In this document: positions 942 to 63,844 of the stretch, one piece after another
How positions within the stretch are numbered: the stretch's first letter is position 1
Layout: every line of letters begins with the position of its first letter
Assembly (NCBI GenBank): GCA_038231435.1
Contig: JBBRLJ010000027.1
Location: 14,517-78,516 of the forward strand
DNA from: Planctomycetota bacterium
GTDB lineage: Bacteria > Planctomycetota > UBA11346
Length of the DNA stretch: 64,000 bases
Reading direction: 5' to 3'
The notes under the pieces: generated by a model
What the model was told of the DNA's origin: nothing
Databases searched by the model: none
What the model saw: the letters and a program-made list of their open reading frames with translations, nothing else
Translations under genes and position numbers: made by a program

Positions 942-1538
942 ATGCGCCTGGCCGTCCGCCGCGCCATGGCCCCGCGACCGGGTTTGCCCAGCTCGACCCG
1001 CGCGGCGCTCGCGGCGCGAAGCGCCTTCACCTTCATCGAGGTGCTGATGACGGTCTCGATCCTGGTGGTGCTCATGGGCCTGCTGCTGCCGGTCCTGAGC
1101 ATCGTCCGCGAACAGGTCCACCGCACGCGGGCGCGCGAACAGATCGCCGAGATCCACATGGCGCTGCAGCACTACGCCTCCGAGGAGCGCCGACACCGCT
1201 ACCCGACGCAATCCGACGACCTGTCACTGCGCTACGATCCGACCCGGGCAACGATCGAAAACCTGAACGCGCTGATACAAGGCGGCTACCAGATCGACAT
1301 GACCACCATCGACCGCAGCGTGTCGCCGCAGGTCATGCTCGATCCCTGGAAACGGCCGTACCGCTACCAGGTCGACAGCGACCTGTTCACCCTGCCGGGC
1401 GCGCAACGGCCCAAGGATTCGACCATCTGCCCAGCGTGGAACTCCAAGGGCGTGCGCCCGTTCGGGTACGTGTGGTCGTTGGGCAAGAAGGGCCAGGACG
1501 ACGGCAGCCAGTGGATCTACCAGAAGGACACCCAATGA
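942..1538 (+). CDS. Prepilin-type N-terminal cleavage/methylation protein, GspG-like (cassette 1, gene 1); start could be 909, 942 or 966
   Basis: RSA|FTFIEVLMTVSILVVLMGLLLPVL; LDPWKRPYRY; YVWSLG; stop overlaps next ATG (ATGA). Confidence 0.85.
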   Translation: MRLAVRRAMAPRPGLPSSTRAALAARSAFTFIEVLMTVSILVVLMGLLLPVLSIVREQVHRTRAREQIAEIHMALQHYASEERRHRYPTQSDDLSLRYDPTRATIENLNALIQGGYQIDMTTIDRSVSPQVMLDPWKRPYRYQVDSDLFTLPGAQRPKDSTICPAWNSKGVRPFGYVWSLGKKGQDDGSQWIYQKDTQ

Positions 1539-2767
1539 GCACCAAGCGCGGCTTCACCCTCATCGAACTGCTGATCGTGATCTCGATCCTCGCGATCATC
1601 ACCAGCTTCCTGTCGTCGCTCATCGGCATCGCCAGACGGCAGGCGATGATGACGAATACGCGCGCGATCCTGATGAAGGTCGATCAGGCAGTGCGCCTGT
1701 TCCGCAACGAGACGAAGATCTACCCGCACCAGACCGACCTGTCGCAGGCGGACACCGATCCCTCGCAGTGGACCAACAACCTGGCATTCCGCCTGGCGTG
1801 GAAGCCGGCGGACGCGGCCGAGCGTTCGAGCTACATGGCCAAGTTCCAGGCGGATCTGTCCGAGATCAACCGCCGCTTCGTGTATCTCGACGGCAACCGC
1901 GCCAATCCCATGAACGGCAGCCACGCCTTCCACGTCGAGAATCCGGGCACCACGGGCCGGACCAACATCATGATCTCGCCGGGGACCTTCGGCATCGTGC
2001 CCGACGCCAATTTCACCATCCAGAATGGCGGAGCCCAAGGCGCCATCGTGCGCGGCGACATGGCGCTCACCCAGGGCTTGGTGCTGTCGCGCCTGGCGGC
2101 CGAGATCACCTGCATGCGCTACATGTCCGGTTGCCTCGACCGCTCCGCCACCGTTCCATCCCCGCTCGCCACGCTCGAGGCGCCGCAGGGCATCCTGCCG
2201 ACCGATCTCGACAGCCGGGGCGCCAGAAAGTATCCCTTCGAGGATACGCGGTACGCCATCCTGAACTACGGTCCCATCGGCTACCGCTACGTCCCGTACA
2301 ACCGCGAGAGCGACGTCGGCTTCGGCAACGACAAGCGCGGCCCGGTGCTGACCGCGGCCACCGCGCAGGCCAGCGGCTTCCGCGCCGATTACCTCGCGGA
2401 TGCGCTGCGCAGGCGCGTCCCCGGAGGACGCATAGGCGAGATCGATGAATCCGGATCCGCCATCCTCGATGCGTACGGGCAGCCCTTGATCTACGTCTGC
2501 TCCGTGGCCCCCGGCGCGCGCGCCTACACCCACGCATCGGACGAGGGTGGATCCACCGCCGACGAGCACCGCTATGGCATGGGCCCGAGCGGACGCGAGG
2601 CCACGACCTCGATGGATTCGGATGTGCGCACCACCGCCGACGCGCCGTTCACGCTCGAGTTCGAGCTGTGGAGCGCCGGTCCGGACGGCAAATTCTCCCA
2701 CCGGCGCGACGATCCGGTCAACCGCGACAACATCGCGCTGCTGCGCTACACCAAGGGCCTGCGGTGA
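1535..2767 (+). CDS. Prepilin-type protein, GspG-like with a large insertion (cassette 1, gene 2)
   Basis: MSTKRG|FTLIELLIVISILAII; ILDAYGQPLIY; ELWSAGPDGK...DNI C-terminal GspG-like motif; ATGA coupling. Confidence 0.9.
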   Translation: MSTKRGFTLIELLIVISILAIITSFLSSLIGIARRQAMMTNTRAILMKVDQAVRLFRNETKIYPHQTDLSQADTDPSQWTNNLAFRLAWKPADAAERSSYMAKFQADLSEINRRFVYLDGNRANPMNGSHAFHVENPGTTGRTNIMISPGTFGIVPDANFTIQNGGAQGAIVRGDMALTQGLVLSRLAAEITCMRYMSGCLDRSATVPSPLATLEAPQGILPTDLDSRGARKYPFEDTRYAILNYGPIGYRYVPYNRESDVGFGNDKRGPVLTAATAQASGFRADYLADALRRRVPGGRIGEIDESGSAILDAYGQPLIYVCSVAPGARAYTHASDEGGSTADEHRYGMGPSGREATTSMDSDVRTTADAPFTLEFELWSAGPDGKFSHRRDDPVNRDNIALLRYTKGLR

Positions 2768-4209
2768 GGTTGCGAGCGGTGAAGGGCTCTGCGTCGGAAG
2801 GCCGAGCACTGATTCGCTCACCGACGCCACGCTCTGGAGGCTTCAGCCTGCTGGAGCTGCTGGTGGTGATCAGCGTCATGCTGGTGATCTTCGGTCTGAT
2901 CGGATCCTCGTTCGCCCGCAAGGATTCGCGCCGCCAGGCGGTGATGACCTCGGCCGAGGAACTGGCCGCGACGTTCCGACGGGCGCGTGCGATGGCGGTC
3001 GACCGCAAGGCGACCTTCGCAGTGGTATTCAACATCCAGAACGATCCGGATTCGTCGGGTCGCGTCTTGAACAACCGCAGCGGTGGGCACTGGTACCGCA
3101 TCCTGCGGCCTCCGAGCACCGGCGACCAGAACACCATCGACAACATCCCCGATTTCCCCACGTCGATCTTCGGACCGTACACGGTGTGCGACTACAAGGC
3201 CAACGTCACCTCCTGCTGGATGGACGACACGCACGTGCTACCAGCGCGGAAAGTACGCTTCCTGTCGTTGACCGACATGGACTGGGGCGATTTCACCGGC
3301 CAGGACTGGCAGAGCTACGGTCGCAGGCCGGGCGCGGGCGGCAGCCAGACCTTTCCGCGGCCGTGGTTCGGCTGGTGGGACGGCGCCACCAAGCGACTCT
3401 ACCCGTGGGGCGGCTACGATCCCGCCATCGCACCGAGCGGCTTCTACTTCTGGGGCAATGCGAACGCGCCGAGCGGCTATTACAACATTCAAGGCGTCCG
3501 CGATCCCATCGCGCCCACTGTCTGCCGCAACACCTGCGATCGCTATCTCGACCATTGGGTGGTGTGCAACACCAACCCGCCGCGCAACCCCGAGGGCGTC
3601 GGAACCGATCTCCTGTACGCCAACGGCTCGCCCAGGCCGCTGCTGAACGCCGACTGGCGAGACGCCTCGCTGCTGTTCCTGAGCGACGGCTCGGTGCGCT
3701 GGGGCGGCTGGCTGCCAGCCCGCCATCTCCGCGATTATTCCGGCCCGAACCAGCGCGGCGTTCCCGAGCGCTGCAACGCCCAGCCCGGCGGATTCGGCGG
3801 CCCGAATCATCATACCAAAACCGAGGCCAGCAACTTCGACCAGGACAGCGGCGGCTGGTTCATCACCCTGGCTCCCGATGCCGACACCGACAAGGACACC
3901 TTCGAAACCGCCAAGGACGCGCTCGATTCGCTGATGCCGATGGTCAGAGTGTTCGTGTCGAAATTCGGCGAGGTGCGCGTCATCCCGGTGTCGCGCACGC
4001 CGAAGTTCGCTGGCACCGCGCCGTTCCCGACCACGGCCAACTGGTACAACACTGGTTCGAACGTCCAGCGCGAGTTCGGCATGGACCGCGTGGTCGACCG
4101 TAGTGTCAGCGCTTCCGATGGCACTGGACTCGGCAGGGTCGTCGGCGCGCCCATCACCGACTTCATCACCCCGGACATGCTCGCCAAGCGCCAGGTGTGG
4201 ATGAGATGA
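2764..4209 (+). CDS. Prepilin-type protein, GspH/FimT-like (cassette 1, gene 3)
   Basis: GTGA overlap; GG|FSLLELLVVISVMLVIFG; SAEELAATFRRARAMAV..K.TFAVVFN typical of FimT/GspH. Confidence 0.88.
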   Translation: MRLRAVKGSASEGRALIRSPTPRSGGFSLLELLVVISVMLVIFGLIGSSFARKDSRRQAVMTSAEELAATFRRARAMAVDRKATFAVVFNIQNDPDSSGRVLNNRSGGHWYRILRPPSTGDQNTIDNIPDFPTSIFGPYTVCDYKANVTSCWMDDTHVLPARKVRFLSLTDMDWGDFTGQDWQSYGRRPGAGGSQTFPRPWFGWWDGATKRLYPWGGYDPAIAPSGFYFWGNANAPSGYYNIQGVRDPIAPTVCRNTCDRYLDHWVVCNTNPPRNPEGVGTDLLYANGSPRPLLNADWRDASLLFLSDGSVRWGGWLPARHLRDYSGPNQRGVPERCNAQPGGFGGPNHHTKTEASNFDQDSGGWFITLAPDADTDKDTFETAKDALDSLMPMVRVFVSKFGEVRVIPVSRTPKFAGTAPFPTTANWYNTGSNVQREFGMDRVVDRSVSASDGTGLGRVVGAPITDFITPDMLAKRQVWMR

Positions 4210-4847
4210 CCAGCGCGTACCCACCAGACCTGCCCGCGCGGATCCCCACGCCTTCGCCCACGAGGGCGTTGCGATCCGGCTTCACCCTCATCGAGATCAT
4301 CGCCAGCGTGCTGCTGTTCTCGTTGGGCGCGATGGCCGTGATCGGCGTGGTGATGTACGGACTGTCGTCGGCGATGAAGGCCCAGGCCGGCGCCACCGCG
4401 TGGGCGACGGCGCTGGCCGTGGTGAAGGATCCGCTGCCGCTCGGCGCGGTGTCCGCGTCCAATGGCACGCTCACCCCGTGGACCTGGACCTCTTCGGGCG
4501 CGTCGTGGAGCGCCAACGACGGTTCCGCAGATCCCGCGTGGACATACACCTCGTGGCCCCTGAATCTGGCCTCGGACGTGCTCGTCCCCGACATGGCGGA
4601 TCCCATCGCCAACAATCCGGCGATCTTCTCGCTACGCGGCGCGCCCGCGGTCGGCTGCGCGCACGGCTGGCTGAACGGCTACTACGTCGAACGCCGCGAG
4701 CAGTCGCGTGCCTCGGACCGCATCGGCCGAGCCACGCGCATCGTCGAAGTGCGCGTCGACGTCTACTGGGCATCCTACGGAGCGGCGAGCGACGGGCGCC
4801 GCCTCGCGACCGTGACCGACCGCGTCGTTCGGCAAGGCGACCTGTGA
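4206..4847 (+). CDS. Prepilin-type protein, PilV/GspI-like (cassette 1, gene 4)
   Basis: ATGA overlap; SG|FTLIEIIASVLLFSLGAMAVIG; C-terminal IVEVRVDVYW strand. Confidence 0.88.
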   Translation: MTSAYPPDLPARIPTPSPTRALRSGFTLIEIIASVLLFSLGAMAVIGVVMYGLSSAMKAQAGATAWATALAVVKDPLPLGAVSASNGTLTPWTWTSSGASWSANDGSADPAWTYTSWPLNLASDVLVPDMADPIANNPAIFSLRGAPAVGCAHGWLNGYYVERREQSRASDRIGRATRIVEVRVDVYWASYGAASDGRRLATVTDRVVRQGDL

Positions 4848-5890
4848 TGGATCCATCGAAGCCCGGTGCCGATCGCCTCGGCCGTGTCCCGACCAGGGGC
4901 CTGGGCCTCACGCTCATCGAACTGCTGGTGTCGATCGGACTGGGCGTGGTCCTCGTCGGCTTGGCGTACTCGGCATTCACCCGCGTGAAGGCCAGCACCG
5001 AGCGCGCGACCGTGCGGGTGGACCTGCACGCCTCTGCGTCGGTCCTACGCTCGCACATGCAGCGGGATTTCGGCAACCTCGCTCCGAGCCTCGCGTTCTT
5101 CGCGCGCAGCCGGCCGCAAGTCGTCGACGCATCCAACCCGTCGCGCAAGACCGATACCATCGAGGTGGTGTTCATGCTCACCACCGCGCCGCTGGTCAGC
5201 CAGTCGAATTTCGGGGAACAGTTCAAGTCCGACTACCACTGGGTGCGGTGGCGCTTCGTGCGCGCGTGGCGCGACGTCGCCGGTACGTGGAAACCGATCG
5301 GCGGCCGCCTCTACCGATCGAGCAGCAGGCCTTCACGCTCGTGGAGGACCCTGTCCAACGCCACCGCGTTCAAGGCGCCGGGGCCCCTGATCGATCCCGT
5401 ACCGGGATACCAGCAATGGACGAGCTACGCGGGCCGCGAGTGGTTCAACATGCCGCGACCGCTGCGCGACGCGTCGCAGGGCATCGAGTCGCTCGAGAAC
5501 AACCGCTACGGCATGGACACCACCGTGGTCGATCCCACCTCGGCCCCCCTCAACCGCACCACCGCCGCGTACGGCGACATCGGCGATCTCACCGATCTCG
5601 ACAGTACCGAGGAATTGGTGACCGACCGCATGCGCGACTTCGCCATCGGCTGGGTCGATGCCCATGGCGCCGTGACCACCCTCTCCACTGGAGTCGCCGC
5701 CGACCACCGCATCGACGGTCTGTACGTCGACGTCACCGGCCCCGCCGGGAATCCAGCCCTCGCCCAACTCGCCCGCCGTCCGCGAGTCATGCGCGTCGCC
5801 TTCGGCCTGGCGGATGGCAAGACCGGCATCGCCCAGGATTTCTCGTTCTCGGTGGCGACGCCGGGGCTCCAGCCCCAGATCGGACAGTGA
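4847..5890 (+). CDS. Prepilin-type protein, PilW/GspJ-like (cassette 1, gene 5)
   Basis: TGATG overlap; LG|LTLIELLVSIGLGVVLVGLAYSAF; MQRDF; C-terminal RPRVMRVAFGL...QDFSFSV. Confidence 0.88.
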   Translation: MDPSKPGADRLGRVPTRGLGLTLIELLVSIGLGVVLVGLAYSAFTRVKASTERATVRVDLHASASVLRSHMQRDFGNLAPSLAFFARSRPQVVDASNPSRKTDTIEVVFMLTTAPLVSQSNFGEQFKSDYHWVRWRFVRAWRDVAGTWKPIGGRLYRSSSRPSRSWRTLSNATAFKAPGPLIDPVPGYQQWTSYAGREWFNMPRPLRDASQGIESLENNRYGMDTTVVDPTSAPLNRTTAAYGDIGDLTDLDSTEELVTDRMRDFAIGWVDAHGAVTTLSTGVAADHRIDGLYVDVTGPAGNPALAQLARRPRVMRVAFGLADGKTGIAQDFSFSVATPGLQPQIGQ

Positions 5891-5969
5891 GTCCGGCTCT
5901 TCCACCCTCGCGATCGATTCCAGATGCCTCAGCTATTTCCGCTATTTTCCGCTGCAGCACGGAGCCCTC

Positions 5970-8900
5970 ATGCCACATCCCGACACCATCCAGATGCCGA
6001 CGATGCCTCGCCACGGCACCATCCTGCTGATCATGCTCGGCCTGATCATGGTGATGATCATGGTCGCGTTCGGCTTCGTCAGGTCGATGCAGATCTCGCG
6101 CGGCACCATCCAGATGCAGCACAAGGACGAGTTGGCGTCGCTCGCGGCGGACATGGGCATGAGCCATGCCATCGCGGTATGCATGCAGGAATACGCGATG
6201 GACTCCGAGAAGGTGGACGGCGCGACGCGCACCGGCACGGCGGTGAAGACCCGTCCCGACGGTCCGACCAGCAACGTGTTCAACATCATGTCGCCGCGCG
6301 TGAACACCCAGCTGCCGATCCAGCCGCCGCAGGCGTACGACCTGGCTCCCGACGTCCCTTTCAATGACCTGTTCAACAACTTCGGCGGGAAGTACCACTG
6401 GTGGACATCCAAGGTCTCCGGATTCACCTCGGGCTTCACCATGAGGCGCGGTTATGCCCGCCTGTTCGAAGCCAACCGCTTCGACTTCGACGGATCCAAG
6501 GTCTACGATCCGGCGTCTTACGACGATTTCGATCCCAACCGCCCGCCGCTCTTCCTCAAGGCGGTGCAGCCGGTCCCCGGTGGCGTCAGCACGCCGTTCC
6601 CACCGGTGGACCCGTTCCTGCGCGGATCCTACGCTCCTGGCCGCTCGGCCCCCGTGCACCCGCTCGACCACCCGGTGTGGCTCGACTCCGAGTTCCTCCC
6701 GGTGAAGGACGTCAACGAGGCGCGCTACCGGCTGCGCTACGCGGTCACGGTCACCGACATGTCCGCCGCGCTGTGGATGAACACCGACATGCCCTGGCTG
6801 GACGACGCCACCAAGGCGAAGGTACGCAAAAGCTACAAGGACTCGATCGAAGCCGTCGGCGTCCAGCTCGTCTCCCTCAACATCCAGAACGGCACGGCGG
6901 AGATCAAGACACGGTACCCGCTCACCCTCGAGAGCATCTTCCTCGGCTACGGGACGATCGGGAATTCGCAATTCCCTGACCGCGACGGCAAGCCAAAGGA
7001 TTGGCCGACGCGCACCACCGATGGCTTCGCCACGCCGCTCGCGACCCCGGCGCACATGGCCTACCGCTCGAATTACGTGTTCTGGGGTTCGGACATCGCG
7101 CGCGAATTCTACTGCGTCCTCGGCAGCCCATACATGCGGTGGTTCGATCCGCCGGGCACGTGGCTGGGCAGTCCGCTGGCATCATACACGGATCTCGGCT
7201 TCTCGGTGCTGGGCTACGGCAGCGACTGGCCGCACGCGGGAGAAGGCGCCGGCGCGCGGGCCGATGATTTCGCGCAGCGCGCGGGCACGCCCTTCGGCCA
7301 CCCTTACGAGAGCTACGCTCCGCCGCGGGCGCGCGGCGAGGCCCATCCGTGGACCGTGAACGTCCTGACCGTGCCGGCGCGCGTCCTCCAGGCGATGGTC
7401 AGCGCGTACGTGCCTCCGGCCATGCGCGGGGTGCTCATCTCGAGCGAGGACCACATCCCCTTCTACGAATACGTCGACGGCTCGCTCAACGTGAACCGCA
7501 ACTGGGGCACCGCCGGGCAGATCCGCTACGGCGCTTCCACCTGGACCGGCAATTCGTGGAGCATCAGCGTCGCCGATGCCGTTGCCTCAGGCTTGAGCGT
7601 AGCGGGGAGCGGCATCGACCTGTTCACCGACTCGCTGACCCCGTACGGCCAGGTGCCGTTCAGCTACCCCGCGCCGGCGAACCGCGATTATTGGGGTTCG
7701 GATCCCGCCGCGCGTCCCGATCCGACACCAGCGGCGGACATGCGCACCAATGCGCAGCGTTATCCCGGCGCAGCGTTCTTCAGCCGCGCCGACGAGATCG
7801 AGGCGAACCGCATGACCCAGTGGAAGAACGTCGCCGCGGATCCGCGGCAGGTCGAGAGCGAAGGCTCGGGGAGCAGGATCCCGGCTGCCGGGGTAGGCGT
7901 CGACCATCTCGCCCGACATATCGTCTTCTACATTCCGGACACGCCGGTCCCGACTCCGGGATCGAGCCGGAACTACCTGACGTCGAATGCCGGACTCAAC
8001 GCCAACTGGGCATGGGATTTCACGCCCGCCATGCCGCTGGGCAGCATCTGGGGGCCGCCGGGCAGCTGCGCGGGCATGAGCCTGTACCTGCCATCGAGCG
8101 AGACGCTCGAGCTCCCGGGCGCGGTACCGATCGCCCCCAATGGCGAGGTCTACCCGAACTACCCCACCGACGGGACCGGTCCGGCCCTGCTGAGCGCGCC
8201 GCTCGCCGCGCGTCCAGGCGTGCAGACGCCCACCGGTTGGCGCGTCATCCGCCACGCCGGCAGTGGCTCGACCGATCCGGTCACCACCGCGCGCAATTCC
8301 TATTGGCAGCGCCTCACGCTCGCGTTCCTGCACGCCGTGGTGGTCGCGCAGACCGCGAATCTGGCGTGGGCCGACCCGCAGGACAACCGCAGCCAATCCA
8401 TCTGGCAGCCGATCGGCGGCGGGTTCACCGGCGGACCGACCTACAACACCAATCCCAATTCCACAGCGACCATCGTGCGCAAGGCGCCTGGCCTGGATCC
8501 GAAGGCATCCGACTTCGACGCGCTCGAGCAGATCGATCGCCAATTCCTCGCGAACCTCGGCGAAAGCTTCGAACACGCCGGCGCCGAGACACCCACAGTC
8601 GCGCTCAGGGAGCGCCCACCGCGCTACCTGCGCTATCAATGCCAGTCCATTCCCTATCCCGGACCAGCGACATTCGATATCGGCACCCTGACCAACGTCG
8701 CCGAGTACCGCGTCACCAACAACATCCGCACGCTGTTGACCCCGGTCGACGGCACGCAGCTGACCGCGAGCAGCCGCGACGACCAAGCTCCGGGCGCGGT
8801 ACCGCGCAGCCTCTGGCTGCTCGACGAATGGAACGCGCTCAACGATCCCACCTACGTTCCCGGTACCGCGGTGGGTACCCAGCCGACCGCGCTCGCGCGC

Positions 8901-9392: not shown

Positions 9393-9411
9393 GCTCAGCG
9401 CCGATATCCGT

Positions 9412-10830: not shown

Positions 10831-10837
10831 CACCGAT

Positions 10838-18414: not shown

Positions 18415-18415
18415 C

Positions 18416-19123
18416 TCACAATTCCTGGGAGACCGTGAATCCCGCGTGGTAGATGGCGAAGGACGAAGCATAGCCGTGGCGCGATGGTCCCACGGAATAG
18501 TCCTGCGTCCACAGCTGGATCCTCGGGCAGACGGTCGCCGTGAGCGCCGCGTCGCTGGCGACGCCCATGCTGCATGGCGGGGAGACCTGTCCGCGTCCCA
18601 TGGCGACGTTGTCGGGCGACAGCGGCAGGCCGGTGCCGTACTGCGCGTAGATGATGATGGTCTGATCGGCGGTGGTGGGCGCGTCGGTGTTGGAGCCGCC
18701 CGCCGGAGTGCTGGCCACGATCACATTGCGGTTGAACTTGAAGAACGCCGCGGCGGTGCCCGACGCGCTGTAGGTAGACTGGTCCGAGGGATCCTCGCCG
18801 GCCATGAAATACTTGGGAGTGCCCGTGGCGACATTGTCGAAGATCAGCGCGACCGAGGCCTGCTGGCCGGCGGACTGCCTGATGGCGATGCCGAAATGAT
18901 AGGGTGAGGCGCCGGCGGGGATCGCCGTGGTCATCGCCAGGATGCGCGCCTGGCGCCAGCACATGGAGATGTCATTCACCGCGGAATTGATGTTCCCGTG
19001 GCGGATCGAGGGCAGCACGGTTGGGACGGCGATGCCCATGAGGGTCATCATGATGCCGATCACCATCAGCAGCTCGATGGCGGTGAAGGCGGCGCGCGAA
19101 GCCTGGGTGCGTTGATTATTCAT
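18416..19123 (-). CDS. Prepilin-type protein, GspH/FimT-like (cassette 2, gene 2)
   Basis: MNNQRTQASRAA|FTAIELLMVIGIMMTLMGIAVP; SAVNDISMCWRQARILAM. Confidence 0.88.
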   Translation of the reverse strand: MNNQRTQASRAAFTAIELLMVIGIMMTLMGIAVPTVLPSIRHGNINSAVNDISMCWRQARILAMTTAIPAGASPYHFGIAIRQSAGQQASVALIFDNVATGTPKYFMAGEDPSDQSTYSASGTAAAFFKFNRNVIVASTPAGGSNTDAPTTADQTIIIYAQYGTGLPLSPDNVAMGRGQVSPPCSMGVASDAALTATVCPRIQLWTQDYSVGPSRHGYASSFAIYHAGFTVSQEL

Positions 19124-56226: not shown

Positions 56227-59112
56227 CTACTTGGTGATGAGCGGCGTCACTTCGGTGAGTGTACTCTTGTTGATCAGGTGGTGCCAGCGTTGGAACAGGA
56301 CTTGGCTGTCCCCGAGGCCAGTGCACTGCGCCGGATTCGCGTTCCACGCCGGTTTTGGCGCGCCCATCACGTCGTAGAGCGATCCATCCGGATCGATGGC
56401 GAACACCGACTCGAGATCCGCCTGCGCCACCGGGCGTTGCTTGTATTCGTCGAAGACCTCGCCGCGCACGAAGGCGCGGAAGAAGTGGCTCTGCTGGAAC
56501 ACGAAGTAGCCGCTCAGACTCCAGCGCTTGTCGCCCAGGGCCGGGTCGATCACGCGACCCTTCCCGCTCGTCGGATCCGCCGGAACGTTGCCGTTGGGAT
56601 ACGCGCTGCACCACACGATGCCATCGTCGTCAAAGTCGATGCCCTGGAAATTCGGGTACTGGGGGCTGGCGCCGAAAAAGCTCATGCGCGTGTCGTTGAG
56701 CACGAGTTCCATCTCGCGCATGTTGGCGCCGCTCAGCGGCGTCGGCGCCGCCGACATCATCTTGATATTCCGGTCCAACGAGGTTGCCGGTGGTGCGTAG
56801 AGCTTGCGGATCATCCGCTGCGGCCACCACAGCATGGGCTGATCGTAGTTCGGATGACTAGAATCGGTGTCGCAGTAGACCCCGGTCGACGGAACCATCG
56901 GGCGCGTGCCGGTCGCGAAGTCGCCCCAGTATTCGCCCATGTTGGTGATGAACAGGCGATCGACCTTCTCGACGCTGTCCAGCTGCGATGGCGATTCGTT
57001 GACGCCATCCCCGTTGGCGTCCGCGTCGATGACCGGCATCGCCACCGCCGGCGCCGGACCGCCGGGTGGATTGAGGCAGGGAGGTGGCTGGGTGGTCAAG
57101 CGATGACCGATAGGCCAGGTCACCGCGCCCAGCGTCGGGGCTCCGCCCCAGCTGGCCCCGGTCTCGCCGTGCCACGCCAGCATCGAGGACATCAAGGTGT
57201 GGATCATCGCCACGTTGACGTCCTGCCAGTAGGAATTGGGATACAGGTAGGCATTTCCGGGCGTGATGCTGTAGAAGTTCGCCGCTCCAGGCGAATGGTC
57301 GATCATCTGGCCGCCGGGGAACCGATCCGCTTTCTCGATCAGGTGCCATGGGCCGACGAGGAACATCAGCATCCCGTCGCCGAACAACGGCGAGCTCTTC
57401 ACGAACTCGTTCGAGATGTGGATGTCCTTGCCGAGATCCGGGTTCCAATCGGGTCCGGGAGTTGACGGATCCATGCCCGGGTACGGATTCGGCACATGCC
57501 ATGCGAACGGACTGGTCGCAACGGGGAGAACGTTGCGCAGCTTGCTGCCCGCGTGCACTACCGTCCAACCTGGGAGATCCGGATCGACGACCGAGTTGAA
57601 GGCGAAATTCGGCGAGCCATCGGCGAAGTCGCCTACGTAATCCGAGATGGTCTTGTGCTGGTAGAGATAGCTCCTCGGTTCGACGGGGAGATGCGCGTAC
57701 ACCATCTGCAGCAGAACCTGCGGCGTCATCGTCGGTATGTTGATCCGCCACGGACATGAGGTGTAACCTTCGTCCCACGTCGTCGGCGCGGCGACCTTCT
57801 TGGTGCCGCGACCGTACGGAGAGTAGGTATAGCACGCGAATGCGTTCGACCGGCGCTGCTGGCCGGCTGCGGCTCCTATGACTTCGTAGCTGAGCGTGGG
57901 ACCGCGCCCGCCAACGTAGCAATGCAGATACGCGGAGGCGGGCTGAGAGAACCACGGCGGAGCATCGGTATCGTAGAAGCCATCGGGTTCGCCTGCGGGA
58001 ATGGACGACAGGGATTGGTCGTAGTCGTTCAAGACCACCGGCCGTCCGGCGACGAACTTGGTGATTCCGACGCCTCCGCCGATCGGGTTCTCGCCTTGCC
58101 CGTACTGCTGCGCCCCCATGCCGCGCGCCATGTATCCGAGCGTCCATTCGTACGCACCAGCCTGGGTGCTCATGACCAGGGAGCTGAACGGATCGATCCA
58201 CTCGTCGACCAGGGCCTTGTCGATCTCCCGCGCACCGTTGTCGTCCGCCGCGGTGACCGTCCCTCCGGTCGCAGGATTGTTGACCGGCTTGGAGTAGGTG
58301 CCCGGGAAGTTGATGAACAGGTGGCCCGAGAGATCCTCGATCGCGACCGCGTAGCGCAGCCGGTAGCGCGCCGCAGCGCGCGCAGCATCAAGGGCCGCGC
58401 CAGTAGCGCCCACGCCGAGCGGCTGGAAATCCGAGTCGTAGTACAGCGGCCTGTTCACGTCCGGGGTCCAATTCTCGCCAGCGCGGATCGCCGGATCGGG
58501 GGAGGCCGCATTGGCGGGCTGCGGATGGGTGAGATGGAAGCTGACCGGTTTGCCAACCAAGTCGGAATCGTAGCACCCTGGCTCGATCCACCGGCCAAGG
58601 GTGGATGTGCGCATCTGTCCGTCGGTGATCCCGCCCCGATCCGTCTGCGAGTAGACCTCGAGCAGCGTCATGTCAGCGTTCACGTCGTTGCCGTTCGAGT
58701 CGTACGGCGTGCCCAGTCTGCCCTTCGCCTCGTTGTCCGAATTGATGGCCGTATCCCATCCGGCCTTGTAGCTGTCGATGGCGCGGAAGCCCGTATTCCA
58801 CGAGCTGGTGAGGTCGTTCCCGACCTGGTTCGGAAACCGGTAATGCGACGGCACGCGCGGCGAGCGCGCATAGGAATCGAGCAGCACCGCCATGGCATGG
58901 GCGGAGCCGGCGCGGGCGCTGGTGCGCGCGAATCGCTGCAGCGTCCCCTCGGTCGCGGTGTCGACGGCCGAGCGTCCGACGTACAGGCAGGCAAAGGCGA
59001 GGGAGACGCAGATCGCCGTCAGGCCGATGGCGACCACCAACGTGGTGCCAGAAGCCGTGGGCCTGCTCGCGGTCGTGGAGGAAGCGCGGCCGAACATCGA
59101 AGTGCACCTCAT
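56227..59112 (-). CDS. Giant (~960 aa) PilX/GspK-like pilin lacking Glu5 (cassette 3, gene 6)
   Basis: ATGA overlap; SG|TTLVVAIGLTAICVSLAF; AR..ARAG.AHA; shares ARYRLRYAV, DR.F..N.GE, ND.RMSF.GA, RGE.FD, IDPD with 5970-9392. Confidence 0.85.
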   Translation of the reverse strand: MRCTSMFGRASSTTASRPTASGTTLVVAIGLTAICVSLAFACLYVGRSAVDTATEGTLQRFARTSARAGSAHAMAVLLDSYARSPRVPSHYRFPNQVGNDLTSSWNTGFRAIDSYKAGWDTAINSDNEAKGRLGTPYDSNGNDVNADMTLLEVYSQTDRGGITDGQMRTSTLGRWIEPGCYDSDLVGKPVSFHLTHPQPANAASPDPAIRAGENWTPDVNRPLYYDSDFQPLGVGATGAALDAARAAARYRLRYAVAIEDLSGHLFINFPGTYSKPVNNPATGGTVTAADDNGAREIDKALVDEWIDPFSSLVMSTQAGAYEWTLGYMARGMGAQQYGQGENPIGGGVGITKFVAGRPVVLNDYDQSLSSIPAGEPDGFYDTDAPPWFSQPASAYLHCYVGGRGPTLSYEVIGAAAGQQRRSNAFACYTYSPYGRGTKKVAAPTTWDEGYTSCPWRINIPTMTPQVLLQMVYAHLPVEPRSYLYQHKTISDYVGDFADGSPNFAFNSVVDPDLPGWTVVHAGSKLRNVLPVATSPFAWHVPNPYPGMDPSTPGPDWNPDLGKDIHISNEFVKSSPLFGDGMLMFLVGPWHLIEKADRFPGGQMIDHSPGAANFYSITPGNAYLYPNSYWQDVNVAMIHTLMSSMLAWHGETGASWGGAPTLGAVTWPIGHRLTTQPPPCLNPPGGPAPAVAMPVIDADANGDGVNESPSQLDSVEKVDRLFITNMGEYWGDFATGTRPMVPSTGVYCDTDSSHPNYDQPMLWWPQRMIRKLYAPPATSLDRNIKMMSAAPTPLSGANMREMELVLNDTRMSFFGASPQYPNFQGIDFDDDGIVWCSAYPNGNVPADPTSGKGRVIDPALGDKRWSLSGYFVFQQSHFFRAFVRGEVFDEYKQRPVAQADLESVFAIDPDGSLYDVMGAPKPAWNANPAQCTGLGDSQVLFQRWHHLINKSTLTEVTPLITK

Positions 59113-60179
59113 GGCGTTCCCAGCTTCCAGACGGAGTGCGGCGGAGGGACCCCCGGGATGAGCGGAAAGCTGAACGAAAAGCGTTGCTTCACGTCCTGTG
59201 CGCGCGACATCAGGATCCCCGTCGGCTTCTGGCGCATCGTGAAGGCGATGCGCAGCAGCGCTGGACGTTCGCCCGAGACATCGCGGGGATCCGCCGGATC
59301 GCCGTAGGCGGCGGCGAGCGCGTACGCCCGGGCATCCACGAACAGCCCGTCGAGATCCACCTGCGTCTGCGAGCTCCACGGTGTGCCGAGCCAGGCGGAG
59401 GCGACGCCCGTGGGGTCGCGGCGGCACAGCCCGAGCGTGGGATCGAAGCGGGTCTCCCATCCCGAACAGTCGACCCACGAGAGCGAGAAATCTTCGATCC
59501 CGTACCGTGACGGGATCAAGCGCCGGCTGTTGGCTGTGAGATCGTCGGCATCGCCGCGCCAGGTCGCCACGTTCCGGCTTCGCGTCCAGTAGGCGGCCGT
59601 CATGCCTTCGATGGTGCGGTAATCGTTGTCATTCATGTCCCGCCTCCGGTCGCGGCGCGGCTGCTGCACGAAATCGAGATAGTAGACGATGGGATTCGCG
59701 ATCGGATCGGTGATATTACCCCACCACCACGAGGTCCGCCCACCGCTGGTGCGCGCGAGCAGCAGCTGCGAGCCGGTGCCCGGCGTCTTCGGCCCGTTCC
59801 AGGTCAGCTTGAACCAGTCCTGCTCGCTGAAGTCAGCGTTGCCGTTGTTGGCATACGGACCCCGATCGTTCAGATCCGGCAACGAAGTCCACCAGGTCAG
59901 CTCCACGCTCTCGTCGCCGGTACCCCAGGCGCCGTCGGCTCCAGGGCCGGCCTGGCAATGCCACGCGACGCACGGATGGGTGGCCTGGAATTTGTCTCCC
60001 ACGGTGCGCTCGAAGGTCGCCGCGGTATCGTGCATGCCGATCAGGACAGTGGTGAGCGACAAGGTGCGCGCGATGTGCGTGACCACGCCGGCGAACAGGG
60101 CGAGGAGCGTCACCGAGATCGTGGTCGAAACGAGCAGCTCGATGATGGTGAAGCCGCGGATGCGGGCGCGGTCGCTCAT
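59109..60179 (-). CDS. Prepilin-type protein, PilW/GspJ-like (cassette 3, gene 5)
   Basis: ATGA overlap; RG|FTIIELLVSTTIS; DF..SWVD; LDGLFVD; RPALLRIAF; QRFSFSF. Confidence 0.88.
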   Translation of the reverse strand: MSDRARIRGFTIIELLVSTTISVTLLALFAGVVTHIARTLSLTTVLIGMHDTAATFERTVGDKFQATHPCVAWHCQAGPGADGAWGTGDESVELTWWTSLPDLNDRGPYANNGNADFSEQDWFKLTWNGPKTPGTGSQLLLARTSGGRTSWWWGNITDPIANPIVYYLDFVQQPRRDRRRDMNDNDYRTIEGMTAAYWTRSRNVATWRGDADDLTANSRRLIPSRYGIEDFSLSWVDCSGWETRFDPTLGLCRRDPTGVASAWLGTPWSSQTQVDLDGLFVDARAYALAAAYGDPADPRDVSGERPALLRIAFTMRQKPTGILMSRAQDVKQRFSFSFPLIPGVPPPHSVWKLGTP

Positions 60180-60664
60180 GGCGCGCGCGCGCGCACGATG
60201 CGCTCCTGCAAGCGCGTGACGTGCGCTCCGCCGGTGCCCCAGTACACGTCGACCTCCACCCACGCCCAGCGCCGATCGGCAACGATGATGTCGGAGGTAT
60301 TGGAGGTCTCGGTGCGCCTGCACCAGAAACCATTGAGGTAGCCCTGCGTCGTCATCACGTAGCTGCCCGTCCAGCTGAACGGCGTGCCGCTCTGGCTCCA
60401 GCCATCGTTGTCGGCGTCGCCGACGTCCGCGGTGCATCCCAGTGGCGCATGATCGTAGAGCAGCCCCGTCGCCGTGCCCATACCGGTGTAGCGCGAGATG
60501 GTCTTGCCGGTGTAGCGGTTGGCCATGCCAAGCACGCCGATCACCGCTCCGATGCCCAGGGTGAGCACCAGCAGCACCGCCAGCACTTCGACGAGCGTGA
60601 AGCCGTCCGTCGCCTGTCCGCGATCAGGTGCGCCATCCCGTCCGCGCTTCGAGGAGCCGTTCAC
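60176..60664 (-). CDS. Prepilin-type protein, PilV/GspI-like (cassette 3, gene 4)
   Basis: GTGA overlap; DG|FTLVEVLAVLLVLTLGIGAVIG; GYLNGF; VEVDVYW. Confidence 0.88.
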   Translation of the reverse strand: MNGSSKRGRDGAPDRGQATDGFTLVEVLAVLLVLTLGIGAVIGVLGMANRYTGKTISRYTGMGTATGLLYDHAPLGCTADVGDADNDGWSQSGTPFSWTGSYVMTTQGYLNGFWCRRTETSNTSDIIVADRRWAWVEVDVYWGTGGAHVTRLQERIVRARAP

Positions 60665-62214
60665 GGTTCCTTCCACCACACCCGCTGGCTCATCATCTTC
60701 GGGTCGAGGATGTCGACGATCGGCTGGCCGGTCGGCGTGCCCGGCGTGGGAGTGTTTGCCCAACCCCAACCTGAGCTCGGGCAGAGGTTCAGATAGCCGA
60801 AATGGCAGTGGTTGTTCACGGGGTTCTGCCAGTCCGGGCTCGTGTCCAGCCACACCGCGGGATTCTCTGGCCAATATCCGCCTGGATTCGGACTAGGCGG
60901 AAGGCTCTTGAGGTAACCTTTGCGCTTCTGCACCGCGTACACCGTCACCACGCCGAAGGTCGATATCTCCACGCGCCATGCCGGAGAGATCGAATCGGCG
61001 GCTTCCTCCTCGCTAATGAACGTGTCCTGGTCGAACGGCGAGTCCGGCCCGAGTGTGATGCGGTAGCCGCCGGTGTGCTTGTCGAAGTGCGCGACTTCAG
61101 AGGTCCCCGCGCCGGGATACGGGTCGGTGAAGCAGCCGCGGTTCCCGCCCACCACGTCCACGGCACCTGTCGACTTCGCCCGATCGGGTATGCCGGAGAA
61201 CTCGTTGTAGTAGTAGGCCGTGTTGCTCGTCGGCGGCACCGTCGCCAGGTACGCGCGCCGGGCGCGGTTCCATTCGAGGTATTCGACCTCCCCATTCGGG
61301 CGGAATGAGATGCAGGCATCGAGCCAGTCGGCGTTGACCACCGGCCGCGGCTGGCCTTGCTCCCAGATCGGCCAGTTGACCTCCTTCTCGTATTCGTCGG
61401 TCATGTCGCCGTCGCCATTGATGTCCTTGTCGGCGATGATGTTGGCTCCGGTCCAAGGCGTCGCCTTGGGAAAATCCATCGCGTCCCAATCGTGATTGAC
61501 GGTGCGGCTCGATGGATTCAGGCAGCCTGTGATCGGACCGTCCGATCCTTCGTAATAGAATCCACTCTTGGGGACGGCCGTATCGTAGCCGCCCCACGGC
61601 CACAGGCGCTTGGTCGCGGGATCGAAATAGCCGAACCACGGCCTGGGGTAGGTGGTGTTGGAGTTGGCCCAGTAATAGGTGTTCCATGGCTCGCGACGCG
61701 GGCCTTCCTCGGTGTCGCTCAACGCCAGGAAGCGCACGCGGCCAGGCATGAGGACATGCGGCTCTGAGATCCACGAGCGCGCGACGTCGTCGACGAAATC
61801 CGGGAAATTCGCATACATGCCATGGCAGGTGACGTGGTCGCCGTTGACCAGCAGCTGGCCGTGCGCCAGGGGGATGTTCTCGGCGCTGCCCAGGTACGGA
61901 GCCCTGGTCCGGTGCGAAGGTCCGATCACGCGATAGTAGTGCCCGCCGCTGCGATTGTTCAGCACCTTGCCGCTGCTGCCTGGGGCGTTCTGGATGTTGA
62001 AGGCCACGCCGAAGGTCGTGTGTTCCTTGAGCGCGCGGTGGTGCGTCTCCCTGAGCACCGCGGCCAGTTCCTCGGCGGCCGCGCGCACGTCGGCGCCGCG
62101 CTGCTGCGTGGTCGTCCCCAGGGCGAACAACCCCATGAATGCCAGCGCTATGGCGATAACGACGAGGAGCTCGACCAGCGAGAAGCCCGCCCTCAAGCTC
62201 CTCGGTTCCCTCAT
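60661..62214 (-). CDS. Prepilin-type protein, GspH/FimT-like (cassette 3, gene 3)
   Basis: ATGA overlap; AG|FSLVELLVVIAI; AAEELAA; FNIQN...SSG.VLNNRSGGH. Confidence 0.9.
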   Translation of the reverse strand: MREPRSLRAGFSLVELLVVIAIALAFMGLFALGTTTQQRGADVRAAAEELAAVLRETHHRALKEHTTFGVAFNIQNAPGSSGKVLNNRSGGHYYRVIGPSHRTRAPYLGSAENIPLAHGQLLVNGDHVTCHGMYANFPDFVDDVARSWISEPHVLMPGRVRFLALSDTEEGPRREPWNTYYWANSNTTYPRPWFGYFDPATKRLWPWGGYDTAVPKSGFYYEGSDGPITGCLNPSSRTVNHDWDAMDFPKATPWTGANIIADKDINGDGDMTDEYEKEVNWPIWEQGQPRPVVNADWLDACISFRPNGEVEYLEWNRARRAYLATVPPTSNTAYYYNEFSGIPDRAKSTGAVDVVGGNRGCFTDPYPGAGTSEVAHFDKHTGGYRITLGPDSPFDQDTFISEEEAADSISPAWRVEISTFGVVTVYAVQKRKGYLKSLPPSPNPGGYWPENPAVWLDTSPDWQNPVNNHCHFGYLNLCPSSGWGWANTPTPGTPTGQPIVDILDPKMMSQRVWWKEP

Positions 62215-63191
62215 TTGAGATCTCGGGTGTACCGCTCAGCCGAGATGTTGTCGCGGTTGACGAGATCATCGCGCTGCGACTGAGCCTTGCGATCTGGCCC
62301 AGAGCTCCACAGCTCGGGCGAATTGCGCCACGCCGCGGAGGCGGTGGTCCTGATGTCGCTGGCCAGGCTGGTGGTGACGGCGCGTCCCTGCACCTGCAGT
62401 CCGTAGGCCGATTCGTTGATCGGCGCCGACTGGGTCGTCACCCACTGGCGCGGATCGTTGGTCTGCCAGCTCAGGAATCCCGGCGTGACGTATCCGTGGA
62501 CACCGGGGACGACCGGACTGACGTAGATGAGGGGCTTGCCCCAGCGATCGACGATCTGATTGCCGGAGATCTCGCTCTTGGAGATGTCCCCGGTGAGGTA
62601 GTCGCTGGCGAATCCCGGCGTGGCGGAGCTTTCCGCGGGCGACGGCACCAGCCGGCTCGCGGACTGGTCGTAGCCTCCGAACGCCTTGATGCCCTTGATC
62701 TCGAGCACTCCGGCGAAGATCGCCACCCGCGCACGGGTCGAGGCCAGACGGTTGATGTGGGCCGCGATCTCGGACTGCAGGTGCTCGCAGGCATCCGAGT
62801 CGAGCATATCGATGTGGGTGCGGTTGAGGACCATGGTACCGAAGGACGACGATGCATCGTAGCGACCGGACGCCATAGCGGCGTCGGCGCGCAGATCGGT
62901 CAGCTCTGACGCCGTCATGGCGCGGGTGAGATGGAAGCCGAGGCGGTTCGCCTCGGGGAAGCTGCCGCTGGAGTGATCCTGGTAAGGGTACGCGCCGACG
63001 TCGGCGCGGAAGGCATCGAGGGCGGTGCTCACGCGCTTGAGCAGGCCCTTGGTGTTGGTGATCGCGGCCGAACGCTTGGTGATGTTGAGCATCGGCATGA
63101 GCATGCCCACGAGCAGCATGAGGATGAGGATGACGATCAGCATCTCGATGATGGTGAACGCATTGGTGCGGGGTTGCGCCATCGGAATCAT
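62211..63191 (-). CDS. Prepilin-type protein, GspG-like with insertion (cassette 3, gene 2)
   Basis: ATGA overlap; NA|FTIIEMLIVILIL; IVDRWGKPLIYV; ELWSSGPD...VNRDNI. Confidence 0.9.
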   Translation of the reverse strand: MIPMAQPRTNAFTIIEMLIVILILMLLVGMLMPMLNITKRSAAITNTKGLLKRVSTALDAFRADVGAYPYQDHSSGSFPEANRLGFHLTRAMTASELTDLRADAAMASGRYDASSSFGTMVLNRTHIDMLDSDACEHLQSEIAAHINRLASTRARVAIFAGVLEIKGIKAFGGYDQSASRLVPSPAESSATPGFASDYLTGDISKSEISGNQIVDRWGKPLIYVSPVVPGVHGYVTPGFLSWQTNDPRQWVTTQSAPINESAYGLQVQGRAVTTSLASDIRTTASAAWRNSPELWSSGPDRKAQSQRDDLVNRDNISAERYTRDLK

Positions 63192-63844
63192 CTTTTGTCC
63201 TTGGGATAGATCCACGTCGTCGCATTGGTCCGATCCCCTGCGGTCCCCAGGCTCCAGATGTACGGATGCAGGAGCGGACCGGCGGCCACGACGGTGGTGA
63301 CCGGATCGGGCCTCAAGCCCCATTCGCGTTCGTGCGCGGCTGTCGCGTCCCAGTTCCAATCGCTGAGCGCGCCGGCAGGCAAGGCCACGCTCGGGCGCGC
63401 CACGTCGAACTGGTACGGCCGGCTCCACGGATCGAGCAGGCGGGTCGCGTCATCGCGCCGCTGCTCGGCGCCGAAATACAGGCCGATCGCCGACAGCTGG
63501 GCCAGCGCTCCCTGCCCTGGCCCGGGGATCGCCAAGACGCTGAGGGTGCCATCGCCATTGACCATCGGAAAGCGGTGACGCGGATCGTCCTGCCGGTAGG
63601 TGACCATCGCCTCGGACAGCTGGCTGATTACCTCGGCGGCCGTGTGCTTCTTGCTGCTGGTGCGCACCATGCCCACCGCCGGCAGCAGGATGCCGATGAG
63701 CGCGACGATGCAGGTCACCGCGATCATCAACTCGACGAGCGAGAACCCTGAACGCCCGCGGCTGGACGATCCGCCCGACGCGCCTGCGCTGGACGCGAGC
63801 ACCGACCGCAGTCCTGCTGCAGGTTGTAGCGACGTCAGGCCCAC
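63188..63844 (-). CDS. Prepilin-type protein, GspG-like (cassette 3, gene 1); start uncertain
   Basis: SG|FSLVELMIAVTCIVALIGILLPAV; RHRFP; LLDPWSRPY; YIWSLG; WIYPKD. Confidence 0.87.
   Translation of the reverse strand: MGLTSLQPAAGLRSVLASSAGASGGSSSRGRSGFSLVELMIAVTCIVALIGILLPAVGMVRTSSKKHTAAEVISQLSEAMVTYRQDDPRHRFPMVNGDGTLSVLAIPGPGQGALAQLSAIGLYFGAEQRRDDATRLLDPWSRPYQFDVARPSVALPAGALSDWNWDATAAHEREWGLRPDPVTTVVAAGPLLHPYIWSLGTAGDRTNATTWIYPKDKR

Follow-up and report, generated by a model that had tools for sequence, protein, structure and literature searches.

Multi-copy cassettes of pilin-like genes in a Planctomycetota genome are likely exchangeable starter-and-tip complexes for pilus-like fibers

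The genome of an uncultured member of the Planctomycetota harbors 13 cassettes of pilin-like genes, 4 of type A and 9 of type B, which on sequence grounds belong to two unnamed families and which likely act as exchangeable starter-and-tip complexes for pilus-like fibers. Minor-pilin tip complexes control the onset of type IV filament assembly and determine what the filament contacts. FimU/PilV/PilW/PilX of type IVa pili (T4aP) and GspH/I/J/K of type II secretion systems (T2SS) form such a priming tip complex, in which the X/K subunit lacks Glu5. To our knowledge, known bacteria carry one to three minor-pilin tip sets each. The Verru_Chthon A-D genes make up four-gene, multi-copy cassettes in Verrucomicrobia. 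Three of the 13 cassettes lie in the 64,000-nt stretch of DNA analyzed here (the window), from which a preliminary description had proposed a multi-copy family; the genome-wide count bears this out beyond the window.

Results

The three cassettes in the window are compact operons of six genes each, and all 18 pilin-like genes are intact open frames, as first described. With the start codons chosen here, genes overlap by 1 to 11 nt at 12 of the 15 junctions, which agrees with the claim that most junctions are coupled; in cassette 3 all five junctions overlap, by 4 nt each. Two junctions are gaps, of 1 and 4 nt. Genes 1e and 1f are separated by 79 nt if 1f starts at 5970, and they overlap by 77 nt if it starts at 5814. 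The overlaps suggest that matched amounts of each protein are made, as would be expected for a complex. The contig ends at the right edge of the window, 156 nt upstream of cassette 3, and the region beyond is outside the data.

Glu5 is present in 15 of the 18 proteins, whose N-termini read [G/A]-[F/L]-[T/S]-x-x-E ahead of a hydrophobic helix; the -1 residue is Ala, not Gly, in 1a, 2b and 3b. In the remaining three (1f, 2e and 3f) the helix is present without Glu5, as in GspK/PilX and as had been claimed for the X/K-like subunits. Each cassette encodes one giant subunit (1f, 1140 aa; 2c, 1345 aa; 3f, 961 aa), as first proposed. The protein 3f reaches 1083 aa only as the longest ORF and has 961 aa with the ATG at 59112. 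The giant is the K-like protein in cassettes 1 and 3 and the V/I-like protein, with Glu5, in cassette 2.

Cassettes 1 (plus strand) and 3 (minus strand) are of type A, with the order gspG-H-I-J-K and a K-like giant, and are paralogous position by position. Their first genes encode GspG-like proteins: the pseudopilin 1a (942..1538, 198 aa, AFTFIE start), in which Pfam T2SSG matched residues 59-144 with 26 bits (cut-off 21), and its paralogue 3a (63188..63844, 218 aa, GFSLVE, N_methyl 23 bits), at 28% over 188 aa. A second G-like pilin follows, with a long C-terminal part in 1b (1535..2767, 410 aa, GFTLIE, N_methyl 32 bits, TIGR02532 32.9 bits); its paralogue 3b (62211..63191, 326 aa, AFTIIE) had an N-terminal TIGR01710 match of 45.9 bits, below cut-off. 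The type A signature protein is the GspH/FimT-like pilin 1c (2764..4209, 481 aa), with N-terminal GspH matches below cut-off, and it is 33% identical over 535 columns to its GspH-like paralogue 3c (60661..62214, 517 aa, GFSLVE). At E<=1e-10 it has 189 database relatives (90%-identity clusters), which carry generic names only. The small PilV/GspI-like pilins are 1d (4206..4847, 213 aa, F26 and E30), with a PilV (TIGR02523) N-terminal match of 18.9 bits, below cut-off, and 18 relatives in alignment A4, and its paralogue 3d (60176..60664, 162 aa, GFTLVE), with a PilV N-terminal match of 27.2 bits. The PilW/GspJ position is held by 1e (4847..5890, 347 aa, GLTLIE start with E25, N_methyl 16 bits, alignment A5), assigned by position, and its paralogue 3e (59109..60179, 356 aa, GFTIIE, N_methyl 19.7 bits). 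The giant GspK-like subunits come last, 1f at 5970..9392 and 3f at 56227..59112, where the start codon overlaps the stop of 3e. The C-terminal 182 aa of 3f, which is included in alignment A3, are 35% identical to 1f.

Cassette 2 (minus strand) is of type B, with a fimU-pilV-W-X-pilE-like order and a V/I-like giant. It opens with the G-like pilin 2a (19116..19781, 221 aa, GFTILE, N_methyl 21.5 bits, and a GspG N-terminal match) and the H/FimU-position pilin 2b (18416..19123, 235 aa, AFTAIE), which had a TIGR02596 N-terminal match of 27 bits against a cut-off of 70 and which aligned with the type A H-like protein over 85 columns in hhalign. The giant in the PilV/GspI position, 2c (14377..18414, GFTLFE, PilV N-terminal match 25.8 bits, below cut-off), has eight paralogues in the genome and just 13 database relatives at E<=1e-10. 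It is followed by the PilW/GspJ-position pilin 2d (12354..14387, 677 aa, GFTLIE, N_methyl 25.6 bits), which has paralogues in the genome, by the GspK/PilX-like 2e (10838..12364, 508 aa) and by a terminal G/H pilin in the PilE position, 2f (9412..10833, 473 aa, GFSLLE, N_methyl 26.5 bits, with GspH and GspG N-terminal matches). The type B K-like protein comprises 341 representative clusters at 50% identity, and T2SSK matched neither the K-like proteins nor any of 96 relatives of 2e.

We scanned the 18 proteins against family models. Pfam identified N_methyl in 12 and T2SSG above cut-off in 1a, and it matched nothing in 1f, 2b, 2c, 2e and 3f. NCBIfam added N-terminal matches of PilV/GspI type for 2c and of Verru_Chthon-D type for 2b, bringing the proteins with N-terminal pilin-type matches to 15 of 18. 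None of the 18 reached the curated cut-off of the GspG/H/I/J/K (TIGR01710, 01708, 01707, 01711), PilV or Verru_Chthon models; the only models passed were TIGR02532 and N_methyl, which describe the prepilin N-terminal domain in general, and, in 1a, Pfam T2SSG. Every other family match was confined to the N-terminal helix, and profile searches against PDB sequences found nothing past that helix. The I-, J- and H-like assignments are made from gene position and N-terminal matches only. The Verru_Chthon matches, of 15-27 bits against cut-offs of 51-256, refute membership of that family, from which the cassettes had already been set apart. The best scores were 27.2 bits for model D (TIGR02596, cut-off 70), 20 for B (TIGR02598, 51.4) and 21.7 for C (TIGR02599, 256.5), each spanning only about the first 40-70 model positions. 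Model A (TIGR02600) matched none of the 18 proteins at E<=0.01, and its sole match in the genome, at C33:43433, scored 17.4 bits (cut-off 332.3) over model positions 1-55.

Structure prediction modeled both K-like families, which are mutually unrelated, as pilin folds with GspK as the best solved match; Foldseek returned no significant match for either model. The model of 1f was of low overall quality, with a mean pLDDT of 55.5 and 513 residues under 50. In it, a predicted pilin scaffold of residues ~17-300 and ~971-1130 is interrupted by an insertion of ~670 aa. Among 18 relatives the scaffold is conserved (majority-residue share 0.52, gaps <=5%) and the insertion is variable (share 0.33, 27% gaps, length 454-761 aa). 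The preliminary description had proposed an adhesin fused into a pilin; the large inserted parts matched no Pfam family even at E<=1, and calling the inserted part a "binding head" is a guess.

The preliminary description had placed all cassettes in a single six-gene family. We found two types instead, with no detectable similarity past the N-terminal helix, and the conserved type A core in relatives is five genes, b to f. Of 16 type A loci in related MAGs, 14 keep the order b-c-d-e-f and two are cut by contig ends; gene a lies directly upstream in 7 of the 14 complete loci. Among 400 sampled genomes both families are confined to the window's own Planctomycetota family. Both are common in metagenomes, and their database names go no further than "prepilin-type N-terminal domain protein" or "hypothetical".

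The cassettes had been described as stand-alone G/H/I/J/K-ordered operons without motor genes. Consistent with this, T2SSE, T2SSF, secretin and A24 peptidase models had no match on the 78.5-kb contig (C27) that contains the window, and the machinery gene nearest to any of the 13 cassettes is 28 kb away. The idea of one shared motor proved too simple. Scattered through the genome are three PilB/GspE-class ATPases (MshEN plus T2SSE), two adjacent PilT-like ATPases, five platform (T2SSF) genes, five secretin genes and one prepilin (A24) peptidase, a count that rests on this assembly of an 87.6% complete MAG. PilY1 (Pfam PF05567) had no match in the genome and was silent in control genomes too; in the annotated neighborhoods no PilY1-like gene lies within or beside the cassettes.

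Downstream of 3f by 72 nt, on the same strand, is a GH9 glycoside hydrolase gene (53668..56154, Pfam Glyco_hydro_9 and CelD_N), possibly co-transcribed with cassette 3. It is followed by the gene for a ~1000-aa transmembrane Ser/Thr kinase (50176..53304, minus strand, Pkinase). Three other cassettes of this genome and 6 of the 14 type A loci found in relatives have a full-length homologue of this kinase beside them, from which we infer that the kinase family is associated with the cassettes. Six of the 13 cassettes have a glycoside hydrolase or carbohydrate esterase within ~5 kb, compared with 1 of 14 random regions; for glycoside hydrolases alone the difference is weak (4 of 13 versus 1 of 14, p=0.14). 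Together, the cassettes tend to adjoin carbohydrate-active enzymes and the ~1000-aa receptor kinase family.

Discussion

The cassettes combine traits of several known systems. Like Verru_Chthon, they are multi-copy PVC cassettes in which prepilin-type proteins (three in Verru_Chthon) accompany one very large protein, there motif-less; unlike it, they have six genes rather than four, occur in Planctomycetota and score below all four cut-offs. The type A order, with a GspG-type gene first and a Glu5-less one last, is that of T2SS GspG-H-I-J-K (GspK-I-J, PDB 3CI0; XcpVWX, 5VTM), and the type A K-like protein may resemble GspK as a predicted pilin fold with an insertion. The cassettes differ from T2SS in lacking flanking gspC-F or gspL-M and any machinery within 28 kb, in having two G-like genes each, subunits all 1.5-4 times larger and 4+9 copies per genome, in the length of the K-like insertion (450-760 aa) and in belonging to no Gsp model by sequence. 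Type B follows T4aP FimU-PilV-PilW-PilX(-PilY1)-PilE, with H-, I-, J- and K-like genes and then a major-pilin-like gene. Several alternative sets per genome are also a feature of the minor-pilin/PilY1 clusters reported for Myxococcus xanthus (PMC7541494). Unlike T4aP and the three clusters of that report, type B has a giant I-like subunit and nine copies, and PilY1 was not found (with controls silent).

That several minor-pilin sets can work on one machine is established in cyanobacteria (PMC13759059), where alternative priming complexes share a motor and where a PilX-type subunit bearing a large additional domain is proposed as a PilY1 substitute. That work describes two sets with assigned functions, compared with 13 here, of different families and known as genes alone. 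Modular pilins with grafted binding modules are likewise established (PilB/PilC of Streptococcus sanguinis, CofB, ComZ; PMC8179133) and join a pilin module to a bulky extra module that, in the cassettes too, would show at the tip. In contrast to the modules described there, the extra parts here match no domain, and in the 1f model the pilin fold is split by the extra part instead of being extended by it. A Verrucomicrobiota isolate, also a PVC bacterium, has 67 pseudopilin paralogues; a PulG-like one lies in an alginate cluster, and alginate induces genes that include a pseudopilin (PMC13274419). Those described are single G-type genes, whereas full G-H-I-J-K sets with giants occur here.

On balance we lean towards reading the cassettes as stand-alone minor-pilin/pseudopilin sets that start and cap type IV-filament fibers, using machines encoded elsewhere. 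One prepilin peptidase would process all cassette proteins. Within a cassette, the H-, I-, J- and K-like proteins would assemble into the priming complex at a platform protein, the G-like pilins encoded with them would lengthen the fiber, and the giant part would sit at the tip of the fiber as a variable binding head. In type A this head would be the K-like scaffold's insertion of 450-760 aa; in type B it would be more than 1000 aa of the I-like subunit. Thirteen sets on few motors would yield fibers of different specificity.

The cassettes might instead be T2SS pseudopilus sets, short periplasmic pistons tuned to groups of exoenzymes such as the neighboring glycoside hydrolases, with no adhesive-tip surface fiber. 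The gspG-H-I-J-K order of type A, the true T2SSG domain of 1a, the GspK fold match of both K-like proteins and the enzymes near six cassettes argue for pistons, as do the PulG-like pseudopilin in an alginate cluster and the alginate-induced pseudopilin of the Verrucomicrobiota isolate (PMC13274419). We nevertheless consider them rather unlikely, given that an extra body of 450-1100 aa on the tip subunit is hard to fit in a secretin channel, that type B is T4aP-like with its terminal PilE-position pilin, that PilT-like ATPases suited to retractile pili are present, and that the enzyme association is weak for glycoside hydrolases alone.

It is improbable that the proteins are not filament subunits at all and that the pilin-like N-terminus is an export signal and membrane anchor of large surface or periplasmic proteins. 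Many of the abundant N_methyl proteins of PVC bacteria may have such a role, and it would fit the ~80 pilin-like N-termini in this genome, of which many lie outside cassettes, the globular parts that belong to no pilin family and the lack of a motor gene nearby. An anchor would not account for the constant H-I-J-K-like order, in which every set has one member lacking Glu5, across 13 cassettes and 14 loci of relatives, for two K-like families modeled as pilin folds nearest GspK, or for overlapping junctions of the kind expected of a complex. Priming of a competence (DNA-uptake) pilus, with the giant subunit acting like Thermus ComZ, deserves very little credence: thirteen diverged copies are ill suited to a single DNA-uptake function, the neighbors point to sensing and to the use of sugars, not to DNA processing, and no competence genes were seen among the annotated neighbors of the cassettes.

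Returning to the cassettes as fiber-starting sets, we offer one narrower version as speculation that is rather unlikely. Each cassette would supply the substrate-specific tip of a retractile fiber and would belong to a polysaccharide-utilization neighborhood, with its giant variable head binding one kind of glycan; a neighboring sugar-type repressor (LacI/GntR) or the receptor kinase would switch on the cassette, and a few shared motors would build and retract the fiber, bringing polymer to the cell. Dextran-binding, pili-like fibers have been seen in Planctomycetes and were photographed in 2017 (PMC5394234); were the glycan-tip version true, the cassettes would provide a genetic basis for them and would be the planctomycete equivalent of the SusD-type proteins with which Bacteroidota capture glycans.

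One genome holds 13 diverged sets, each with a giant subunit three to ten times the normal size, and few motors. If the sets are exchangeable tips, they would form the largest such repertoire among the systems compared and would offer a handle on polymer capture by Planctomycetota.

Results

The window comprises the final 64 kb of the 78.5-kb contig C27, part of a 5.2-Mb MAG of 108 contigs with ~66% G+C, 87.6% completeness and 3.35% contamination. Inspection of the open frames and their possible start codons gave 18 intact genes in three operons, at the positions given in the preliminary description: cassette 1 (942-9392, + strand), cassette 2 (9412-19781, - strand) and cassette 3 (56227-63844, - strand), with genes lettered a to f in operon order. 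In fifteen of the products a brief basic leader precedes the motif [G/A]-[F/L]-[T/S]-x-x-E, after which comes a hydrophobic helix; 1f, 2e and 3f have this helix without Glu5. Ala replaces Gly before the predicted cleavage site in 1a (942-1538), 2b (18416-19123) and 3b (62211-63191), as it does in many paralogues of the source genome. With the start codons as chosen, genes overlap by 1-11 nt at 12 of the 15 junctions; all five junctions of cassette 3 are among these, with 4-nt overlaps. Of the remaining three junctions, two are gapped (1 and 4 nt) and the third is ambiguous. Cassettes 1 and 2 are convergent and end 19 nt apart (9392-9412), with no terminator-like hairpin detected between them. 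Promoter and terminator consensus scans returned no more sites than in shuffled sequence, and no RNA run was listed among the five sequencing runs containing the stretch.

The operons had been proposed to form a single six-gene family, a view that we abandoned in favor of two types. Cassettes 1 and 3 (type A) are paralogous gene for gene, a with a through f with f, at 24-39% identity. Cassette 2 (type B) has only the N-terminal helix in common with them, and profile-profile comparison agrees. We considered types A and B as one diverged family and dropped the idea, because hhalign, run on every cassette position, never aligned more than the first 95 columns. Type A runs G, G, H, I-like, J-position, giant K-like (gene f), which is the order gspG-H-I-J-K; type B runs G, H, giant I-like (2c), J-position, K-like, G/H-like and resembles fimU-pilV-pilW-pilX-pilE. 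Both of these operon orders are well established for the reference systems. The H-, I- and J-like assignments of the cassette proteins are putative, drawn from gene position and N-terminal matches.

A phmmer search of all six-frame ORFs located four type A and nine type B cassettes in the genome, bearing out the suggestion that the cassettes are multi-copy. The type A sites are on contigs C27 (two), C18 and C19, and the type B sites on C27, C11 (two), C9, C7, C12 and C30; the remaining two, on C1 and C26, are distant. Another cassette type lies at C33:41343-50088, where two G-like genes are followed by a 1876-aa giant lacking Glu5 and then a J-like pilin; the first 55 residues of this giant match Verru_Chthon A weakly (17 bits, cut-off 332).

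Family models recognized little beyond the N-termini. Pfam N_methyl was matched in 12 of the 18 proteins, and T2SSG was above cut-off in 1a. NCBIfam matches to the GspG, GspH, PilV/GspI and ComG models and to Verru_Chthon B, C and D covered the N-terminal helix only, with scores far below the curated cut-offs, so there is no strong full-length match to Verru_Chthon cassettes; the sole NCBIfam model passed was the generic TIGR02532 domain. The three K-like proteins (1f, 2e and 3f) matched no family model even at E<=1, and Pfam at that threshold found no lectin, CBM, Ig or propeller domain in 12 of the larger subunits, the three giants included. PDB sequence searches with four profiles of cassette proteins and relatives (A1, A2, A3 and A6) gave N-terminal helix matches or chance rows only. 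In the ESM Atlas, 2c matched unnamed Planctomycetota clusters only.

We modelled 1f with 18 relatives. The model was weak (pLDDT 55.5, pTM 0.67), with confident segments at residues 20-100, 240-300 and 970-1100, and a Foldseek search with it gave no significant match. Structural alignment against 48,161 chains ranked K-type tip pilins first, in a match that unites the N-terminal ~300 and C-terminal ~170 residues; 1f therefore appears to be a pilin scaffold split by a ~670-aa insertion. Across the 18 relatives, the majority-residue share was 0.52 in the scaffold versus 0.33 in the insertion, gaps reached at most 5% versus 27%, and insertion length ranged from 454 to 761 aa. ESM Atlas scores for the insertion were 0.86 or less; its nearest named clusters are T2SSK-type (0.76-0.79), which we take only as a lead.

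We also surveyed the genome for assembly machinery. T2SSE-type ATPases gave ten matches; in Pfam scans covering the three main motor loci, three ATPases fell in the PilB/GspE class, with an MshEN domain, and two PilT-like ATPases adjoin PilB/GspE-class genes. The genome also has five genes each for platform proteins and secretins, and a single A24 prepilin peptidase that includes its N-terminal domain. Motor genes are scattered on C62, C16, C23, C40 and other contigs, most without adjoining pilin genes, and their distance from pilins is a general habit of this genome. On C16, three tandem genes (15824-17457) encode pilins of ~211 aa whose N-termini are identical and of the classic major-pilin kind; these pilins are candidates for the shaft of a T4aP. 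The same contig carries two small pilin-like genes at 34116-34592 and a PilB-class ATPase at 46760. The flanks of all 13 cassettes held no machinery genes, and motor and peptidase genes were nowhere closer than 28 kb to a cassette. A dedicated motor just outside the window was ruled out on the left side, the side this check covers since the right side is the contig end: C27:1-14516 carries a GH16-domain gene, regulators and a transporter, and no motor genes. Thus, of the proposal that one shared motor is encoded elsewhere, the location held, and the single motor gave way to a handful of possible partners.

To follow the cassettes in relatives, we traced the type A H-like protein by pattern scan in one genome per species. 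It occurred at 16 loci. Three Planctomycetota-labelled MAGs, with seven, five and two loci respectively, account for 14 of these; of the other two loci, one is in an unlabelled MAG and one on a 2.6-kb contig from a Lysobacterales-labelled MAG. The order b-c-d-e-f was complete in 14 loci and cut by contig ends in two; gene a lay directly upstream in 7 of the 14 complete loci. The Lysobacterales-labelled contig (L034, 2648 bases) holds genes b to d and the beginning of e, and its presence in a gammaproteobacterial bin is more likely due to mis-binning than to transfer. We further sampled 400 other genomes from the phylum, 23 in the family to which the window belongs and 377 outside it. The type A H-like profile had matches in 8 of the 23 family genomes, one of which matched over the N-terminal helix only, and in 4 of the 377, where every match was confined to that helix. 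For the type B K-like profile the counts were 12 of 23 and 0 of 377. Public protein collections held 189 clusters for the type A H-like protein at E<=1e-10, with generic labels only, and 341 representative clusters for the type B K-like protein at E<=1e-3, 220 of them at E<=1e-30. No informative Pfam family was present in any of the 96 type B K-like relatives aligned and scanned. Giant 2c had only 13 relatives, one with a CBM5/12 domain. The cassette families are thus not rare in these collections, yet are unnamed, and we found no paper describing such cassettes in the limited literature searched on Planctomycetota pseudopilins and Verru_Chthon cassettes.

Genes for carbohydrate-active enzymes and for LacI/GntR-type regulators gather near cassettes in the source genome and its relatives. 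Of the 13 cassettes, six have a glycoside hydrolase or carbohydrate esterase gene no more than ~5 kb away. Upstream of cassette 1 is a GH16-domain gene (L028:13291-14514 on the flanking piece, joined with window 2-697; up to ~641 aa, frames agree), and 72 nt downstream of cassette 3 is a GH9 gene (53668-56154); the other four cassettes have GH78 plus an esterase (C1), GH29 (C26), a GDSL esterase (C18) and a SASA esterase (C9). The window also holds another GH9 (43627-46128), a GH42 (26437-28569) and a GH39-like gene (39275-41194). Such an enzyme gene occurred in 1 of 14 random 10-kb regions (1 of 98 genes), giving Fisher p=0.03 by region and p=0.14 for glycoside hydrolases alone, an enrichment that is suggestive only. 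Type A flanks in relatives carry heparinase-type lyases (3), GH5, GH29, esterases, a CBM9 protein and LacI/GntR regulators.

More striking than the enzymes was a family of ~1000-aa transmembrane Ser/Thr kinases, homologous over their full length, with a kinase domain, one membrane helix and a ~690-aa outer part. Members adjoin 6 of the 14 type A loci of relatives, in three cases on the strand of gene f and 25-46 nt downstream of it. In the source genome, which has ~25 paralogues, they stand beside cassettes on C18, C11 and C1, and one (50176-53304, - strand) is 2.9 kb downstream of cassette 3. The members located next to cassettes include those at L029:16714-19656, L030:13878-16862, L031:9201-12233, L042:16713-19856, L038:192-3239, L037:3-995 and L026:1674-5147 on DNA pieces around cassettes, and at C18:48770-51139 and C11:43050-45509. 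The family occurs next to cassettes of both types. Pfam kinase domains were matched in 10 of 116 flanking genes, a count that includes two shorter kinases outside this family, versus 0 of 98 random genes (p=0.002).

FG-GAP/ASPIC proteins flank three of the nine type B cassettes, cassette 2 among them. The large FG-GAP/ASPIC-UnbV beta-propeller-type proteins are encoded at window 19963-22560 (+) and 22547-25702 (-), L020:12293-14728 and L021:428-3757, and the genes are divergent from the type B operon they adjoin. No PilY1 having been found with a Pfam model that was also silent in its control genomes, a propeller protein is a conceivable partner of type B cassettes. All of these neighbor findings are associations in small samples.

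Discussion

The best-supported reading is that each cassette by itself supplies a whole set of minor pilins or pseudopilins, for either a surface pilus or a secretion pseudopilus. A single prepilin peptidase would process the proteins, which would assemble on one of a few shared machines into a complex that primes and caps the fiber, placing the variable part of the giant at the fiber tip; a binding role for the giant parts is a guess. The principle of alternative minor-pilin sets on a shared machine is known from cyanobacteria (PMC13759059), and modular pilins are likewise known (PMC8179133). New here are the number of sets, the subunit size, the two unnamed families and the lineage.

A bolder reading, on weak statistics, is that the cassettes provide fishing tips, each specific to a substrate; these would be linked to polysaccharide use, with neighboring regulators switching them. 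This reading resembles the PulG-like genes in a verrucomicrobial alginate cluster (PMC13274419), and it fits both the cassette neighborhoods and the dextran-binding fibers that Planctomycetes carry (PMC5394234).
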